From sequence record KM190144: DNA of 64,000 bases; one strand, 5' to 3'. The notes under the pieces are model-generated. The model searched no databases and had not been told where the DNA came from. It saw only the letters and a list, made by a program, of their open reading frames with translations. Of this stretch, positions 22,610 through 45,407 are shown one piece after another (position 1 is the stretch's first letter; each line of letters opens with the position of its first letter). A program made the translations under genes and the position numbers. This DNA is from Escherichia phage Av-05.

Positions 22610-23343
22610 CATATTGTTCAACATGGCTCGCTACACCATGCCCGTCCTTTTAGGAACTGCTACATATTTCTATGCAGATCAGACTATATCTTCATCCTTT
22701 TCAGGATGCCCACCGCTTCGGCAGTCTGAAAGACTGGAGGTTTCCCTCACCGCTTGGCCCTACGCCTTTCGGCTAGTCGTTGAAGTTTCGAATGCTTCCC
22801 AACATTTATGTTCTATTTGATGGCATTTTTTACAAAGTAATTCAAAATTACTTATTTCGTTATTCGTCCTGTCATGGTCAATATGATGAACGCACCATTC
22901 ATCTTTACCTGCATAAAGAAGATCTTTATTACATCTATTACAGTATCTTCTCTGTTCCTTTATGACAGGGGATAACTTACGAAACATCGATATGCCATTT
23001 TTATAAAATTTGGACAATTTCCCACGAGGCTGCCCACCACCTTTTCCTATGCCAACTCTGTCAAGCCTATTTTCTCTTTCGGCCTTTCTGCGTCTATATT
23101 CTCTGGTTTTTATCTTTGAATATTCTCTTCTACAACCTTCAGAGAGACATACTTTTTGATTTTTACCAGTTTTAACACATTGTTCACCGCAGATTATACA
23201 ACAAAATGTGCCCATATTCTCCCTCCTTTTGTAAGAGGGAAGCATTCGCTTACCTGCTGATTATCTTCGACATAACTCGGTCAGATTTCCCAGCAATTCA
23301 ATGGGTGCACCTTACAAATTACTTTGTAAGGGGGCTATCATTA
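22610..23343 (-). mobile_element. group I intron 1 in DNA polymerase gene
   Basis: sense strand begins taa after exon ...ITYG; P-like aattgctgggaaa, Q-like aatcagcagg, R-like cttcaacgactagcc, S-like aagatatagtctga; boundaries within a few nt. Confidence 0.6.
22760..23215 (-). CDS. intron-encoded HNH homing endonuclease
   Basis: Cys-rich N-terminus, CVHHIDHDRTNNEISNFELLCKKCHQIEH HNH motif; ATG with AAAAGGAGGG SD. Confidence 0.65.
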   Translation of the reverse strand: MGTFCCIICGEQCVKTGKNQKVCLSEGCRREYSKIKTREYRRRKAERENRLDRVGIGKGGGQPRGKLSKFYKNGISMFRKLSPVIKEQRRYCNRCNKDLLYAGKDEWCVHHIDHDRTNNEISNFELLCKKCHQIEHKCWEAFETSTTSRKA

Positions 23344-39021: not shown

Positions 39022-40230
39022 TTAATTTAAAATTGCATCTACATCTTTTGCAAAGTTCTTGTGATATTCAGTAATAATCTGCATGACAACAGGATACTTC
39101 TTAAGTAACTTCGCTGGCAGTCTGTCACGAAGGCCATCTAACAAAATACCCTTCCCTGTAGAGCTGTCATTAATAAACGTCATGAAGACAGATGATACAA
39201 AATCACGGTTGGAATGAGCATCATCTTTACCAAAGTTATCATACAGATATTGCAAGAAATTGGCTGAGAAGTCAATAATCTGATCATCTGTGTAGTTGGT
39301 ATTCTTCATAGCCTTACGTAGCCAGATGCAACCTTGTGATCCTAGCGTCCACAATACATCAGAGCTATCAGAGCCAGTGTGTTCTTTAATTGAACCATCC
39401 ATTACTTTCTCAATGGGGACCATATCAGCAACGCGAGTATGGTAATACCATAACTCTTTCATTAATGGCCCACCAATACACCCTTGCAAAGCAGCCATTG
39501 CAAGACGGGAAGTCAGATCACCATCCTCATACGCATACAGAATATCACTTGCAGTAACCCAAGTTCGTGGTGTGGCATATGCAGGACTGTTAATCTCATA
39601 CATGGCCTCGAAGTTTTCCAGTTTATCGGGATTGGCCTGGATAAAACCAATTACTGATGGATGCACATTTTTACGCAACGCATAATCCTGCATCCACACA
39701 GAGGCATCGTAATCAAGTTCCACAACAATAAAACGGTTAGCCAAAGGAGCTTCCATCATGGTCACTGCCGTACCATCACCAGGACGGTTCCCTGCCGCTG
39801 CAAAAACTGCACCTTTTGGAAAGGTGTACTTACCAATTTTATGATCCAAAACAATCTGGAAAGCTACTTTCTGTAAGTAGTTATCTGCATGTAAAAGTTC
39901 ATCAAGGAAAATAATACCTTCCCAATCTGGGTCTTCTGGCCAGAAATCTGGTAGCGCATAGACTGTACGTGTTTTTCCATTGTCGTCTGTTACAGGAATC
40001 TGTACACCTACAACGTCTGTCGGATCTTTATCCGCAAGACGAAAATCAACGAGATTATCATCTCGTTCACCAAACATCTCATTGGCAACTTGCTTCATGA
40101 CTTGACTCTTACCAAGCCCAGCACCACCAAACATCATAAGTGCTTTGTTTGCCTTCTTACAAAATTTCATGAGGCTTGGAATATCACGGAGTGTAACACG
40201 ATGATCTTCAAAAATATTTCTACTAGACAT
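39022..40230 (-). CDS. MoxR/CobS-like AAA+ ATPase
   Basis: Walker A GGAGLGKS, Walker B IIFLDELL, arginine-finger region. Confidence 0.6.
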   Translation of the reverse strand: MSSRNIFEDHRVTLRDIPSLMKFCKKANKALMMFGGAGLGKSQVMKQVANEMFGERDDNLVDFRLADKDPTDVVGVQIPVTDDNGKTRTVYALPDFWPEDPDWEGIIFLDELLHADNYLQKVAFQIVLDHKIGKYTFPKGAVFAAAGNRPGDGTAVTMMEAPLANRFIVVELDYDASVWMQDYALRKNVHPSVIGFIQANPDKLENFEAMYEINSPAYATPRTWVTASDILYAYEDGDLTSRLAMAALQGCIGGPLMKELWYYHTRVADMVPIEKVMDGSIKEHTGSDSSDVLWTLGSQGCIWLRKAMKNTNYTDDQIIDFSANFLQYLYDNFGKDDAHSNRDFVSSVFMTFINDSSTGKGILLDGLRDRLPAKLLKKYPVVMQIITEYHKNFAKDVDAILN

Positions 40231-41006: not shown

Positions 41007-41222
41007 CTAATCCTCCCATTTTATCCATAAAGGGTATTCTGCAACATGCACTTTCTTACCCTTTTTGTTAATAAAAGTATACTCAACAAACTTTGCTATG
41101 TAAAACCTATTGTAATCCTCTGTACCTTTAACAGGACAGTCTGTCTTCCTTCTCTCCACCCATTCTCTGTGGATCACCGCTTTGTTCTTTGGATCAAAGG
41201 GGTGTGGTTGATAAACATCCAT
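41007..41222 (-). CDS. small conserved protein (paralog of 54899-55126)
   Basis: QPHPFDPKNKAVIHREW...EYTFINKKGKKVHVAEY shared with the + strand ORF. Confidence 0.4.
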   Translation of the reverse strand: MDVYQPHPFDPKNKAVIHREWVERRKTDCPVKGTEDYNRFYIAKFVEYTFINKKGKKVHVAEYPLWIKWED

Positions 41223-41719
41223 TATTTCCCCTCGAATCTTTTTCTTGCATCAACAAGTTTAAGATGCATTTCATGGTATTTCTTTAACCTTACCAAATCC
41301 TTATCTGATAAGGATTTAAGACGTTTTACGTCCATATTGTCTTTTAAATCAGCGAGTTTTACACGAATCGCATCATAATTAGTACAGATGCCCTCAATGT
41401 ACTCTTCTTCAGTCAGGCTCTGTTTCTTTGTTAGCAGAAGAACTGCATCTTTTACTCTGTTAGTGAACCCCAACATTACCAAATCGTAAGCTGTAACTTT
41501 GGTATCCTCAAGGATATCGTGAAGGACACCGATTGCCATTAGCTGTAAGTCATCATTACCAAGTTCATGCATCACCCTTAATGGGTGAAGAATGTATGGC
41601 ATTCCACCACGATCTTTCTGCTTAAGATGGTTTTCAGAGGCCAACTTTATAGCTAAAGCTAACTCCTGATGGGGTCTTAAATCTTGCATGTTACTAGGGA
41701 CAGACTTCGATTGTACCAT
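41222..41719 (-). CDS. HD-domain hydrolase (small alarmone hydrolase-like)
   Basis: HPLRVMHELG...VLHDILEDT resembles the SpoT/Mesh1 HD motif. Confidence 0.5.
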   Translation of the reverse strand: MVQSKSVPSNMQDLRPHQELALAIKLASENHLKQKDRGGMPYILHPLRVMHELGNDDLQLMAIGVLHDILEDTKVTAYDLVMLGFTNRVKDAVLLLTKKQSLTEEEYIEGICTNYDAIRVKLADLKDNMDVKRLKSLSDKDLVRLKKYHEMHLKLVDARKRFEGK

Positions 41720-42534
41720 TCATATGCCTCTTTCATATCAAAGGGTTTTATACCAATATTATCAAAATCTACAAGAGAATCAAGAAAAAATTCTCCTTTG
41801 TACCCAGCCATTTCTATCATTAAGCGTTCCTCTTGGGTAGGGATCTCCCCCAAGATAAGCTCTTCCAGCTCCTTTTCTACAACACGATGATACATTACTT
41901 CTTGGGTATTACACACCAAGTAGTAGTGCGATTTCTTATTCTCTACGCCTGGTGTGTTGGTTATCTTAATTCCAGCATGGCCTACATAATCATACATCTT
42001 TGTTTGGTAACGCATTCCATAACAACCTACCAGGGAAAAGGGTCCACAACTGGAATTAATCTCCCTGATGTGGAGAATATCTGGGTTTGTTCTGACATAG
42101 GAAGCCTTTATGGAAAACATATTACCATCCCAATGCCCCAATTGGGACAAAACAGACAGGAATTTTTGTGTTCGTGCAGACAACGACCCTGCTAAACATA
42201 TTCCATAATTAAAGCCTTGGAAAGAGATTGTTATTTGCCCACAAGTAATATCATAGCTTGAAAACTCATGCGTTAAGTTTACGCTTGCCATGTAAGCACG
42301 CTCGTCAGCTTCAACATAATATTTCCAATAACATTTCCTATCCCGAGTATCAAAACACATAAGCACAGCATGTTTTATGAGTTCTATTAAAGGGTTTGGT
42401 TCATGGTGGCGACTTTCAACTTCCCTTATAATGGCTTCACGGAGTGCATTAAAATTTATTTTCATAGATTTTGTGTGATGCAGGTAGTCATCAAAATAAA
42501 AATCCCCTTTATAATCCGTCAGCTTCTTCATCAT
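41677..42534 (-). CDS. hypothetical protein
   Basis: 285-codon ORF, first gene of the minus-strand early block. Confidence 0.35.
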   Translation of the reverse strand: MMKKLTDYKGDFYFDDYLHHTKSMKINFNALREAIIREVESRHHEPNPLIELIKHAVLMCFDTRDRKCYWKYYVEADERAYMASVNLTHEFSSYDITCGQITISFQGFNYGICLAGSLSARTQKFLSVLSQLGHWDGNMFSIKASYVRTNPDILHIREINSSCGPFSLVGCYGMRYQTKMYDYVGHAGIKITNTPGVENKKSHYYLVCNTQEVMYHRVVEKELEELILGEIPTQEERLMIEMAGYKGEFFLDSLVDFDNIGIKPFDMKEAYEWYNRSLSLVTCKI

Positions 42535-42644
42535 GTCTGTCCTCTAAAAAACTTTCATTAGCTCTTAAGAGAGTACAGAACTAAAAAATCAAAGTCAACG
42601 CTTGACAAACTGGAAATTTGTGAGATACTACGAACACAAGCTAA

Positions 42645-43460
42645 GTGACAGAGATATTCTGTATGGACTGGAATGAAGAGTTTACAACCAAAGAGATAAG
42701 GTATCTCAAAACACGACTCTTTTTCAAAAAGAGGAATGCCAAAGCAAGGGGTATAGAGTTTAATCTGACAGAAGATGACTGGTTTATGATGGGTAAAGGC
42801 TTACTTGGGAAAGGTGTTTGTGATTACACAGGCCTACCTTTTTCTGCAACACCTAATGACCCTCTCTACCCATCTGTTGAACGAATAGATGACAAAAAAG
42901 GGTATGTTCGTGGAAACGTTTGTGTAGTCGGCAAGAGAGCAAACCAGTTAAAAGATTTTCTTGTAGACAAAAAGAAAGCTCTAACGATTGTAGACCCACT
43001 TGACATGGATATCGTCCAAGGGATGATATTAAATATGTCAAAGGACCACTTGGAAAAGTTAAAACTTAAACACATACCTACGGAAACAGATATGAAAGAG
43101 ACAGAGAATGTAATTATTAATGAGCAGGTTGAAGAGATGAAAGAAAAATCTCTTCCTGACGATGTTGAAATTGCACTTGCATACGCAAACTACTGTAAAA
43201 CATTTGCGGAAGCAGGTATGAATGTTAGCGTTACTTATGCACAATTTAAGGCTAAATATTCAAGAAACACCTGTTCTCTGACAGGGGAGAAGTTAACAAA
43301 AACACCAAAACCTATTCTCATTATGGATTTAGATCTTGGGTTCGCAAAAGACAACTTTATTATTGTTTCTGAAAAGATGGAAACAGCATTAACACAACTC
43401 ATGATCAATACGAAAATGAGTTTACCAAAAATCACAGCTATGCTGAATAAGGTGGTTTAA
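42645..43460 (+). CDS. hypothetical protein with two internal repeats
   Basis: two C.(Y/S)TG... modules; first gene of + early block. Confidence 0.35.
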   Translation: MTEIFCMDWNEEFTTKEIRYLKTRLFFKKRNAKARGIEFNLTEDDWFMMGKGLLGKGVCDYTGLPFSATPNDPLYPSVERIDDKKGYVRGNVCVVGKRANQLKDFLVDKKKALTIVDPLDMDIVQGMILNMSKDHLEKLKLKHIPTETDMKETENVIINEQVEEMKEKSLPDDVEIALAYANYCKTFAEAGMNVSVTYAQFKAKYSRNTCSLTGEKLTKTPKPILIMDLDLGFAKDNFIIVSEKMETALTQLMINTKMSLPKITAMLNKVV

Positions 43461-43663
43461 TGAAAGATTTTCTACCAAAACAGTGTCCATTTTGTAAAAA
43501 TGATGCACTTTTGCTTAAACAGAAACGCTCTGGGCAAACAGTTTTCCACTACATTTATTGTCAGAAATGCGGGACTTCTGGACCCCACGCGCTGAGTGAG
43601 CTTAGTGCTATAAGTTGGTGGAATATCGGCAGCAAGAAATTAAAGGTAAAAATGTATGTTTGA
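43460..43663 (+). CDS. Lar-like zinc-ribbon protein (restriction alleviation family?)
   Basis: CPFC...C.KCG...WN pattern in 67 aa. Confidence 0.4.
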   Translation: MKDFLPKQCPFCKNDALLLKQKRSGQTVFHYIYCQKCGTSGPHALSELSAISWWNIGSKKLKVKMYV

Positions 43664-43919
43664 AGAAATTCTTGGGAGACCAGCTACCCTTCAGGAAGCC
43701 CAGATGATTGAATCTGGAAATAAGCCAAATTTTAAAGTTGGTGATAGGGTTATTTATAAAAATGCAAAGAACATTAAAACTTCTGTAGAAGCTATCGTAC
43801 TTTTTATGTTCCCAAGCCAACCATCAGGAAAGCAAGTTCCTGTATGGGGAGCCAGATTAACTGGTGGTAATAATTTTATGCCGCTTGATACCATAGAATT
43901 ATTTACAAGTAAAAAATAA
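43656..43919 (+). CDS. hypothetical protein
   Basis: 87-codon ORF. Confidence 0.3.
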   Translation: MFEEILGRPATLQEAQMIESGNKPNFKVGDRVIYKNAKNIKTSVEAIVLFMFPSQPSGKQVPVWGARLTGGNNFMPLDTIELFTSKK

Positions 43920-43970
43920 CAAGTATAATAGGCTGTCGAAAGATAGCCTATTTTTGTATGGAGAATAGTT

Positions 43971-45407
43971 ATGCAAAAAGAAGAATATGAAATGATTGCC
44001 AGATTAGAGAAGGATGCTGTAAAAATTATCCAATCGGCACGAATAGCTCTTTTAAAGTACCGACCATTCTACGGTACTTTGTTAAGTTCTCTTCCTTTAG
44101 TTGCGAACTGGAAATGGTTGCCAACAGCAGCTACTGACCACAAAAACCTCTACTTCAACCCTGAGTTTATTATGGGTATGCCTGAAGAAAGGAAGAAGAA
44201 GGTTTTTGAGCGTGTGGATAATCACCCCACAATGACACAACAAGAAAAAGATGACTATAAAGACTATGTGAACGTATTTTATCGTAAGAAAACACCCAAA
44301 GAGGTTGTTGTTATTCTTATGCACGAGCTACGTCATATTACAAATGACCATCTATCTCGTGGAAAAGCATTTGACTCTAAAACCTACAACACAGCAGCGG
44401 ACCACTATATCAATACAGATTTGGTAGTATCAGATCTCGGACCGCGCTCAAACCAGATGTGTTTCTTCCCAATGGGGAAACAGACAATCTTTGACAAAGA
44501 TAAAGAGTTTGGGTTTATGGCTTATTGCTATTGTGATTTTAATTTCCACGGCATGACAGCAGAGGAGATTTACAGTCTCATAAACAAAGGCCAGCCGTCT
44601 GTTGGCAAACCTATGGGCACACACATAGGGGATTATGATCAGGACAGCAATATCCTAGGGTATGAAGATCCTCACCCAGTGCCAAGCCAGACAGAAAAAG
44701 ATGATAATATGTCGTGGTCATCTGGTCTTATCGAAGCAGCAATGGAAGCAGCGGGAGGAGAGGGGCCGAAAGAGGTGCGTGATGTTATTGCAAGAATGCG
44801 TAAACCACACATAAATTATCTTCAGATAATAAAACAGCGTATGCTTTCTCGGATCAAGTCTAACCTGACATACAGGAAGCCATCTCGTAGGTCTGGATCT
44901 ATGACACAGGCACTTCGACAGTACGGAGCTATCGGTAAAAAACAGCATATCGTTTTACCAGGAAGAGAGTACGATAATACTATCGATATAGTTATTGGTT
45001 TTGATGTGTCTGGATCAATTTCGAAGGCAAATTTGGACAAAATCTTTGGAGAAATCGTAGGATTATGCCAGCTTTACCGTGTTTTTCGCGTGACATTGTT
45101 CTGTTGGTCAACAAAAGTCGGAGAGGTTAAAGTTTATACACACGAAAACATCAAGGAAATGCTTGATTATAAAGTGAATTCTACTGGTGGGACTCTTGCA
45201 GCATCAGCTTTTGAGTATATTGAAAATAACATTTTTGATGCAAAAGACGTTATTATTTTTACAGACGGGTATATAGAGGATTTAAGCCACAAGAAAAAAG
45301 ATTGGGGACGCAAATGGGATATTCTTTGGGTTATTTGTGGTCGTGGAAATAATAAATTTGTACCACCTTTCGGAAGGGCTGTAAATTTAGATGAACACGC
45401 AAAATAA
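43971..45407 (+). CDS. vWA-domain protein with N-terminal HExxH metallopeptidase-like motif (CobT/CoxE-like)
   Basis: LMHELRHITNDH motif; C-terminal MIDAS-like DVSGS; likely partner of the AAA+ ATPase at 39022-40230. Confidence 0.55.
   Translation: MQKEEYEMIARLEKDAVKIIQSARIALLKYRPFYGTLLSSLPLVANWKWLPTAATDHKNLYFNPEFIMGMPEERKKKVFERVDNHPTMTQQEKDDYKDYVNVFYRKKTPKEVVVILMHELRHITNDHLSRGKAFDSKTYNTAADHYINTDLVVSDLGPRSNQMCFFPMGKQTIFDKDKEFGFMAYCYCDFNFHGMTAEEIYSLINKGQPSVGKPMGTHIGDYDQDSNILGYEDPHPVPSQTEKDDNMSWSSGLIEAAMEAAGGEGPKEVRDVIARMRKPHINYLQIIKQRMLSRIKSNLTYRKPSRRSGSMTQALRQYGAIGKKQHIVLPGREYDNTIDIVIGFDVSGSISKANLDKIFGEIVGLCQLYRVFRVTLFCWSTKVGEVKVYTHENIKEMLDYKVNSTGGTLAASAFEYIENNIFDAKDVIIFTDGYIEDLSHKKKDWGRKWDILWVICGRGNNKFVPPFGRAVNLDEHAK

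Follow-up and report, generated by a model that had tools for sequence, protein, structure and literature searches.

Introduction

The rV5 paper (2013) described bidirectional promoters in the gap that separates gene 10 from gene 11 of phage rV5 and named the product of gene 11 (gp11) a probable homologue of the T4 protein Srd. According to the passages on it in two papers that cite Qi et al. (2015) (PMC13232886, PMC4980113), T4 Srd binds RNase E, in its N-terminal half, and stimulates the decay of host mRNA; in those passages RNase E stimulation is the sole experimental function cited for Srd, and it is not an anti-restriction function. Here we describe the corresponding region of Escherichia phage Av-05 (Vequintavirinae; an rV5/PVP-SE1-like myovirus), in which a divergent control region is followed by a gene of the Srd type and then by a gene of the Lar type. 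For the second of these genes the closest described relative is Lar of the Escherichia coli Rac prophage, which King and Murray reportedly found in 1995 to alleviate restriction by EcoKI and to enhance modification, a demonstration said to have been made for Rac Lar only. Phage lambda Ral is a functional analogue of Lar, being likewise a small protein that alleviates restriction of the EcoKI type and enhances modification.

The window, that is the whole stretch of DNA analysed, comprises 64,000 nucleotides (nt) of sequence record KM190144, and all coordinates given without another label are positions in it. A search of a phage collection returned four Escherichia phages labelled Avunavirus as the nearest genomes, at 94% nucleotide identity. 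Both genes are already deposited and named, and they are ordinary for this phage group: YP_009111241 carries the RefSeq names "HNH endonuclease" or "Anti-sigma factor", and YP_009111242 the name "Lar-like restriction alleviation protein". The published announcement of the Av-05 genome does not discuss them. Taken as a whole, the region is in our judgement probably best explained as a bidirectional promoter hub followed by a Srd-type takeover protein, an inserted Lar-type anti-restriction gene and a gene for a protein of 87 amino acids (aa). The promoter arrangement and the Srd homology are already published for rV5; the modest additions that appear to be new are the tandem pseudo-HNH architecture of the Srd family and an insertion junction that is shared among these phages.

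Divergent promoters and the start of the rightward block

The leftward block opens with an open reading frame (ORF) of 285 aa on the minus strand (41677-42534), which starts at an ATG at 42534 behind a good GAGGA Shine-Dalgarno sequence. Between this gene and the first gene on the plus strand lies an intergenic region of 128 base pairs (bp; 42535-42662) for which both the sequence itself and an alignment of eight phages from five genera (Av-05, 24-2-1, PVP-SE1, GAP31, 4MG, SalP219, KpS8 and Hena1) predict two back-to-back divergent promoters. The predicted rightward promoter (42602-42629, plus strand) consists of the -35 hexamer TTGACA (42602-42607), a 16-bp spacer, a TG dinucleotide at 42621-42622 that makes it an extended -10 promoter, and the -10 hexamer GATACT (42624-42629), with 10 of 12 consensus positions matched. 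The predicted leftward promoter (42570-42598, minus strand), with the -35 hexamer TTGACT (reverse complement of 42593-42598), a 17-bp spacer and the -10 hexamer TACTCT (reverse complement of 42570-42575), matches 8 of 12 positions and would be weak if taken alone. Because the count of promoter-like sites across the 3-kb region is not above that of shuffled sequence, a motif scan by itself proves nothing, and the support for these promoters comes instead from conservation across genera.

All eight phages have the same -35 core, TTGAC, on the plus strand, and in all eight it is followed 16-17 bp downstream by a -10 hexamer of GATAAT, CATAAT or GATACT, for a total of 10-11 of 12 consensus positions. 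The minus strand has a TTGA(C/T)T -35 hexamer and a TAnnnT -10 hexamer spaced 17 bp apart, and the T, the A and the final T of the latter are invariant columns in a region whose average identity is 60%. Only in SalP219 did a hexamer scan fail to place the minus promoter at the equivalent position; in the other seven phages it matched 8-9 of 12 consensus positions. The back-to-back -35 hexamers lie 3 bp apart in six of the eight, Av-05 included, and 4 bp apart in Hena1, and a promoter is annotated at the equivalent site of PVP-SE1. Beyond these two opposed -35 hexamers, neither the alignment nor a repeat search revealed a conserved operator-like repeat in the gap, and an Rfam scan of 42300-44100 gave no match.

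These results bear out the divergent control region that an initial annotation, made from the sequence alone, had placed between the two blocks; its right edge, set there at 42644, belongs at 42662. The region thus has predicted sigma-70-type promoters on both strands, is conserved over the eight-phage alignment and, as judged from that conservation, is a real feature already described for the phage group. Since both promoters are of the sigma-70 type, unmodified host RNA polymerase could start leftward and rightward transcription on entry of the DNA. The rightward transcript would open with three translationally coupled genes and would stop at a hairpin resembling an intrinsic terminator.

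The displaced edge follows from the start codon of the first rightward gene, which the initial annotation had read as a 271-aa protein beginning at GTG 42645. That codon is GCG in phage 24-2-1, whose sequence is 94% identical, the equivalent of ATG 42663 (M-D-W...) is the start in all homologues, and the deposited protein has 265 aa; we therefore take ATG 42663 as the start. With this correction the observations made from the sequence alone are confirmed, and the interpretation placed on them is in part supported.

The Srd-like protein and its two modules

The first rightward gene (42663-43460, plus strand) encodes a 265-aa protein that matches YP_009111241 exactly, for which a viral structure library also gave the Av-05 entry at 100% identity, and that is the homologue of rV5 gp11 and PVP-SE1 gp218. 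Its strongest PHROG match is to phrog_3118 (E=6.7e-94), with further matches to phrog_4592 (5e-20) and to phrog_1400 (3.7e-16; labelled "Srd anti-sigma factor"); the PHROGs hit by its N-terminal ~100 residues are labelled as Srd anti-sigma factor, as decoy of sigma-70 or as endonuclease VII. T4 Srd aligned with it at 28% identity in BLASTP (E=4e-13, Srd residues 2-165) and in hhalign at 7e-12 with a probability of 97.5%. Pfam, NCBIfam and PADLOC gave no match for the protein, Pfam was also blank for 47 members of the family, and a PDB sequence search with the single protein returned nothing useful. On the strength of the PHROG and T4 matches, the protein is assigned to the Srd or "anti-sigma factor" family of rV5 gp11, which the initial annotation had left unnamed.

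Orthologues are found in more than 100 clusters, mostly on contigs of 130-150 kb and under inconsistent names; those from the rV5/PVP-SE1 family align over their full length at 36-63% identity (E 1e-57 to 1e-105). The gene opens the rightward block in PVP-SE1, GAP31, 4MG, Hena1, KpS8 and SalP219, and it is also the first gene of that block in rV5-type contigs and in a distant metagenomic relative; in Serratia phage Kashira other plus-strand genes come before it. Comparison with phage 24-2-1 gave 24 synonymous and 8 non-synonymous codon differences, indicative of purifying selection.

The leader of the gene in the Av-05 lineage (42636-42662) is without the strong GGAG and the small GGG-AACAA-CCC hairpin of its relatives (L002 2880-2912, L003 2760-2793). 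Because this site and the hairpin have been lost and only a weak AGAGA about 10 nt upstream is left, the sequence suggests that translation of the Srd-like gene is lower or differently controlled in this lineage. A candidate promoter inside the ORF (TTGACA-16-GATGAT, 43000-43027) was rejected as probably due to chance, since by our own codon count the perfect consensus found in PVP-SE1 falls at different codons of its orthologue.

The initial annotation had noted two internally repeated modules in this protein, and here it proved right. In the family alignment a variable acidic linker separates an N-terminal from a C-terminal block, and both blocks follow one pattern, which can be written as h-x-F/V-x-L/V-T ... 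C-x-x-T-G ... (ERID/LILD) ... G-Y/F-x-x-x-N. Profile-profile alignment of residues 15-112 with residues 170-259 by hhalign gave P=1.8e-4 over 89 columns, and the profile of the C module matched the N-terminal module of T4 Srd (residues 17-99) with P=2.4e-6. In the AlphaFold model (predicted local distance difference test, pLDDT, 89) the same order of secondary-structure elements is repeated twice, and the linker at 142-161 is disordered. The N-terminal, Srd-type module corresponds to 42705-42998 (plus strand), where the AlphaFold2 (AF2) model reaches a pLDDT above 90 and is matched by Foldseek, and the C-terminal copy, which is more degenerate, to 43170-43439 (plus strand), as delimited by hhalign and the model. 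The repeat is visible only to profile methods, for a BLASTP comparison of the two halves was not significant (E=21). No direct or tandem repeat was found beneath the modules at the DNA level, from which we conclude that the duplication is old.

Foldseek returned HNH domains as the top PDB matches of this model, namely the HNH domain of Cas9, PacI (probability 0.99) and Gme HNH, at a modest significance (E 0.007-0.04, probability 0.6-0.99), and strong matches in a viral structure library carry the labels "anti-sigma factor" and "divergent HNH endonuclease". The residues invariant in the family are E73, R74, N85 and N94, and there is no invariant His among them. The family-invariant stretch E73-R74-I75-D76 lies on the strand that in HNH enzymes ends in the catalytic His, R74 being placed at the His position by secondary-structure register and not by a residue-level structural alignment; in the C module the corresponding residues are I-M-D. 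The protein lacks paired CxxC zinc sites, the Pfam HNH models matched none of the 47 family members even at E<=0.1, and the N-module profile had no match among PDB sequences. Because Arg replaces the catalytic His and the zinc Cys pairs are absent, the protein is probably not a nuclease, and on the model both of its modules would be pseudo-nuclease domains. Among the papers of the library searched, we found none linking Srd to the HNH fold, so that the tandem pseudo-HNH architecture of the Srd family may have gone undescribed so far.

Elsewhere in the window, a 161-aa ORF on the minus strand (22760-23245) shows the canonical HNH motif, CNRC...CVHHIDHDRTNNEISNFELLCKKC, in the arrangement CxxC...HHIDH...CxxC. 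It falls just below the Pfam cut-offs for HNH_3 (21.8 versus 24.8) and HNH (20.3 versus 21.4), and from its motif it is probably a genuine HNH endonuclease, in contrast to the His-less modules of the Srd-like protein. In the most distant Srd-like homologue that we collected (P0104, L013 2501-3439), residues 245-309 gave a weak H2TH/SAP-like match (E=4e-4), which hints that the helices after the second Srd module may bind nucleic acid.

The Lar-like protein

The second rightward gene (43460-43663, plus strand) encodes a 67-aa protein of the Lar zinc-ribbon family, an exact match to YP_009111242. The zinc ribbon with CPFC and CxxCG knuckles that the initial annotation had reported is present as C9-P-F-C12 and C34-Q-K-C37-G, and the suspected resemblance to the Lar family held up in profile searches. 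PF14354 (Lar_restr_allev) scored 36.0 bits (gathering cut-off 28.6; E=8.5e-9) in a match that spans residues 7-57 and, of the 58 model positions, 4-57, and phrog_599 matched at 2.3e-11. The NCBIfam model TIGR03655 (anti_R_Lar) scored 33.9 bits (E=2.8e-8), under its cut-off of 39.6, and Rac Lar/RalR is 27% identical to the Av-05 protein (E=2e-5). On these scores we place the protein as a divergent member of the wider Lar family, outside the curated NCBIfam subfamily.

An exhaustive HMMER search yielded 173 relatives at E<=0.001, none of which, outside the protein's own cluster, was better than E=1e-8; a word-indexed protein search returned that cluster only. In an alignment of 53 single-domain sequences, all of them matching PF14354, the residues C9, C12, C34, C37 and W54 are invariant and are present in Av-05, as are the near-invariant P10, F11, G41, P42, A50 and N55. 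The protein carries the CPFC...CxxC ribbon followed by an A-(I/L/V)-x-x-W-N helix, and the AF2 model (pLDDT 88) accordingly folds as a beta-hairpin zinc ribbon with a C-terminal helix at 47-56. Sequence and fold searches of the PDB returned generic zinc ribbons only (in the fold search such as Elf1 and Rpb9, all with E>0.1), and hence offer no structure-based mechanism for the protein. Many distant Lar relatives (P0111-P0120 and others), at lengths of 100-220 aa, have between two and four Lar zinc ribbons in tandem; to judge from these sequences, repeated units are a frequent working form of the Lar family, whereas the proteins of Av-05 and Rac have a single domain.

The insertion junction and the three-gene unit

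In PVP-SE1, GAP31, 4MG and SalP219 the Srd-like gene ends in AAGGTGGTnT(A/G)ATG, and that ATG starts the gene for the 87-aa protein. The ATG at this junction in Av-05 belongs to the Lar-like ORF and overlaps the upstream TAA (TAATG), and ~196 bp after the junction the 87-aa gene starts in a ATGTATGTTTGA overlap. The comparison identifies the Lar-like gene as a lineage-specific insertion of ~196 bp relative to the other genera, and a tblastn search with it found matches in only 4 phage records. Within its final codons the Srd-like gene has an invariant heptamer, AAGGTGG, which by its position is read as the ribosome-binding site for whatever gene comes next. The Lar-like gene appears to have been inserted exactly at the conserved AAGGTGGTnTAATG stop/start junction, and it would for that reason inherit both this ribosome-binding site and the translational coupling.

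A different occupant is found in KpS8 and ~19 other Klebsiella/Proteus phage records, mostly Mydovirus, where an unrelated, cysteine-free ORF of 66 aa sits at the same junction. This ORF (KpS8, L007 3206-3406) is 100% identical in 13 Klebsiella/Proteus phage records and gave a weak DUF6275 match (E=0.036). The junction therefore exists in three states, empty, with the Lar-like gene or with the unrelated 66-aa ORF, and because different inserts are found at the same stop/start site with its AAGGTGG, it would offer small accessory genes a slot ready for expression.

The third gene of the rightward unit would be that for the conserved 87-aa protein (43656-43919, plus strand; phrog_10489, 2e-35), which is translationally coupled to the gene before it; it has homologues in 69 phage records, and most relatives have it immediately after the Srd-like gene. 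The three-gene unit is closed by a hairpin with a T-run that resembles an intrinsic terminator (43927-43952, plus strand; -17.8 kcal/mol, z=-6.2), and PVP-SE1 has a hairpin of different sequence at the same position after its 87-aa gene. A promoter-like TTTACA-16-TATAAT site (within 43902-43952) ends right where this hairpin begins; transcripts starting from it would lack the full hairpin, and read-through from upstream would meet it. PVP-SE1 (L002 4025-4077) has the same order of promoter and hairpin in a different sequence.

Neighbouring genes

The 285-aa minus-strand gene is conserved and syntenic in PVP-SE1, GAP31, 4MG, Hena1, KpS8 and SalP219. Its product matches phrog_10920, labelled "thymidylate kinase" (E=8e-102), and the PHROG label of the 87-aa protein is "tail protein"; neither label has Pfam or NCBIfam support, and both look like propagated annotations of doubtful value. 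Further into the leftward block, the minus-strand gene at 41222-41719 encodes an HD-domain phosphohydrolase (phrog_990, 1.5e-55) and has a 43-nt overlap with the upstream 285-aa gene. Since its relatives are annotated as guanosine-3',5'-bis(diphosphate) pyrophosphohydrolase, its product may be a (p)ppGpp hydrolase. A MoxR-like AAA+ ATPase is encoded at 39022-40230 (minus strand; phrog_1297, with a weak bpMoxR match), and a DUF2201 metallopeptidase/VWA protein (PF13203, PF09967) at 43971-45407 (plus strand), the PHROG label "HNH endonuclease" of the latter being one that its Pfam domains do not support. A MoxR-like ATPase and a DUF2201/VWA protein usually pair; here they lie on opposite sides of the divergent promoters.

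Discussion

We propose that the Srd-like protein may serve in host takeover, its likeliest role being to bind the N-terminal half of RNase E and so hasten the decay of host mRNA. With two degenerate HNH-fold modules joined by an acidic, disordered linker, it would act by binding rather than by cutting. That it should instead be an active HNH, possibly homing, endonuclease that cuts DNA at specific sites, as the RefSeq and PHROG names imply, seems to us very improbable. The names themselves ("HNH endonuclease" in RefSeq and for phrog_3118, with weaker matches to phrog_3322, "endonuclease", and phrog_1035, "endonuclease VII") and the HNH domains returned by the fold search speak for such an enzyme; against it, the position of the general-base His is held by the family-invariant Arg74 and in the C module by Met, the CxxC zinc pairs are lacking, and neither the Pfam HNH models nor the profile search of PDB sequences recognizes the family, whereas the ORF at 22760-23245 of this same genome shows what a standard HNH motif looks like. 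Homing endonucleases, moreover, are usually sporadic, and this gene is fixed as the first rightward gene across genera and is under purifying selection. A role in transcription, either as an anti-sigma factor or decoy of sigma-70/sigma-S or as a DNA-binding regulator of the adjacent promoters, is unlikely as well, if somewhat less so than cutting. Many relatives are labelled "anti-sigma factor" or "anti-termination", an autoregulator would be well placed beside bidirectional promoters, modules derived from HNH domains are able to bind nucleic acid, and the C-terminal helices of P0104 gave their weak H2TH/SAP-like match. The anti-sigma label, however, traces to a proposal for T4 Srd (a "postulated decoy") made without a test, the experimental result cited for Srd is RNase E binding and stimulation, Pfam and NCBIfam scans found no sigma-like or known anti-sigma domain, and apart from the opposed -35 hexamers the gap showed no conserved operator-like repeat; the "anti-termination" label, which comes from RAST, we rejected because nothing supports it. 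All three labels, "HNH endonuclease", "anti-sigma factor" and "anti-termination", are thus probably wrong or without a test, and the sequence points to a two-module, Srd-type pseudo-nuclease.

For the Lar-like protein, alleviation of type I restriction, as by Rac Lar, is the likeliest role and a plausible one. The contrary reading, to which we give a low but not negligible probability, is that this 67-aa ribbon does not alleviate type I restriction and is a DNase toxin like RalR, acts in another counter-defence, for example against type IV systems, or is a generic ribbon. It draws on the present annotation of Rac Lar as RalR, a non-specific DNase toxin, on the Lar homologue of phage Bas63, which was conditionally important in hosts without intact type I systems and for which the authors suggested type IV targets, on the TIGR03655 score below cut-off, and on the structural neighbours Elf1 and Rpb9. 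RalR toxicity was reduced by mutations at positions 14, 37, 39, 49, 51 and 52, and K52Q abolished the DNase activity; because the Av-05 protein keeps only N51 of these six positions and has Ile56 aligned to K52, a DNase role of the RalR type is unlikely on the alignment. The family core (CPFC, CxxCG and A-I-x-x-W-N) is intact, all aligned relatives belong to PF14354, and a variable accessory slot heading an operon with a host-type promoter fits a counter-defence gene, all of which argues against the contrary reading.

Several points weigh against the combined explanation of a Srd-type takeover protein followed by a Lar-type anti-restriction gene under early, host-type promoters. The early timing of the region follows only from the type of its promoters, the Shine-Dalgarno sequence of the Srd-like gene is poor where its relatives have GGAG, and since only the first ~130 residues align with T4 Srd, whose C-terminal half is not alignable by sequence, the transfer of function from T4 is uncertain. 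On the Lar side, identity is only 27% to the one tested member, Rac Lar, for which a role as DNase toxin has also been reported, the TIGR03655 cut-off is missed, and the BASEL phages of this subfamily plate poorly when the host restricts, the Lar-like gene not being known from any of those tested. We also know of no structure or mechanism for Lar.

A more ambitious joint reading, which we consider possible though doubtful, is that the AAGGTGGTnTAATG junction is a landing pad that captures counter-defence genes. Vequintavirinae lineages would independently have captured small genes of this kind at AAGGTGGTnTAATG; the Lar-like insert would give phages of the Av-05 type a protection against type I systems that an otherwise unusually restriction-sensitive subfamily lacks; and the proteins of the Srd family would be tandem pseudo-HNH adaptors that bind RNase E by one module and RNA by the other.

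The findings refine the current understanding and do not change it. The three-state junction is a small and clean example of accessory genes entering a conserved operon with translation undisturbed. Vequintavirinae are candidates for therapy with a broad host range yet plate poorly on restricting hosts, and those of the BASEL collection were reported to be exceptionally sensitive to restriction-modification, which makes the acquisition of a Lar-type gene worth a plating test; heading an operon with a host-type promoter, this gene is a simple test case of whether one small gene alters restriction sensitivity.

Comparison with known systems

The closest likeness is to rV5 gp11 and PVP-SE1 gp218, which are orthologous over their full length and occupy the same first rightward position beside divergent promoters. 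With 265 aa, where the rV5/PVP-SE1 family has 285-346 aa, the Av-05 protein is the shortest form because its acidic linker is shorter, and the weak ribosome-binding site and the Lar-like gene that comes next are found in Av-05 but not in these relatives. With T4 Srd (NP_049634) the homology covers the N-terminal module of ~100-130 residues, with the shared motif ER(I/F)D...GY..GN; the C-terminal halves do not align, and in Av-05 the second half is a recognizable copy of the module. RNase E binding is reported for T4 Srd only, the Av-05 protein being likened to it from sequence. The predicted host-type promoter directly upstream of the Av-05 gene would fit an early takeover role like that of Srd. 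Compared with the HNH or beta-beta-alpha-Me enzymes (PacI, Cas9 HNH and Gme HNH), each module has a like fold and the structural Asn N85 and the helix Asn N94 are kept in Av-05, whereas the catalytic His is replaced by Arg, the zinc Cys pairs are absent and no HNH sequence model matches.

Lar/RalR of the E. coli Rac prophage (b1348) is similar in size (64 aa versus 67 aa in Av-05) and shares the two zinc knuckles (CPFC and CxxC) and, at the C-terminus, the A-x-x-x-W-N helix; a CG(T/A)xGP motif occurs in the Av-05 protein and not in Rac Lar. The Rac gene belongs to a prophage toxin-antitoxin locus and the Av-05 gene to a lytic phage operon, near which the Rfam scan identified no antisense RNA like the RalA of RalR. 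With lambda Ral the comparison is functional only, no sequence relationship having been found or being claimed.

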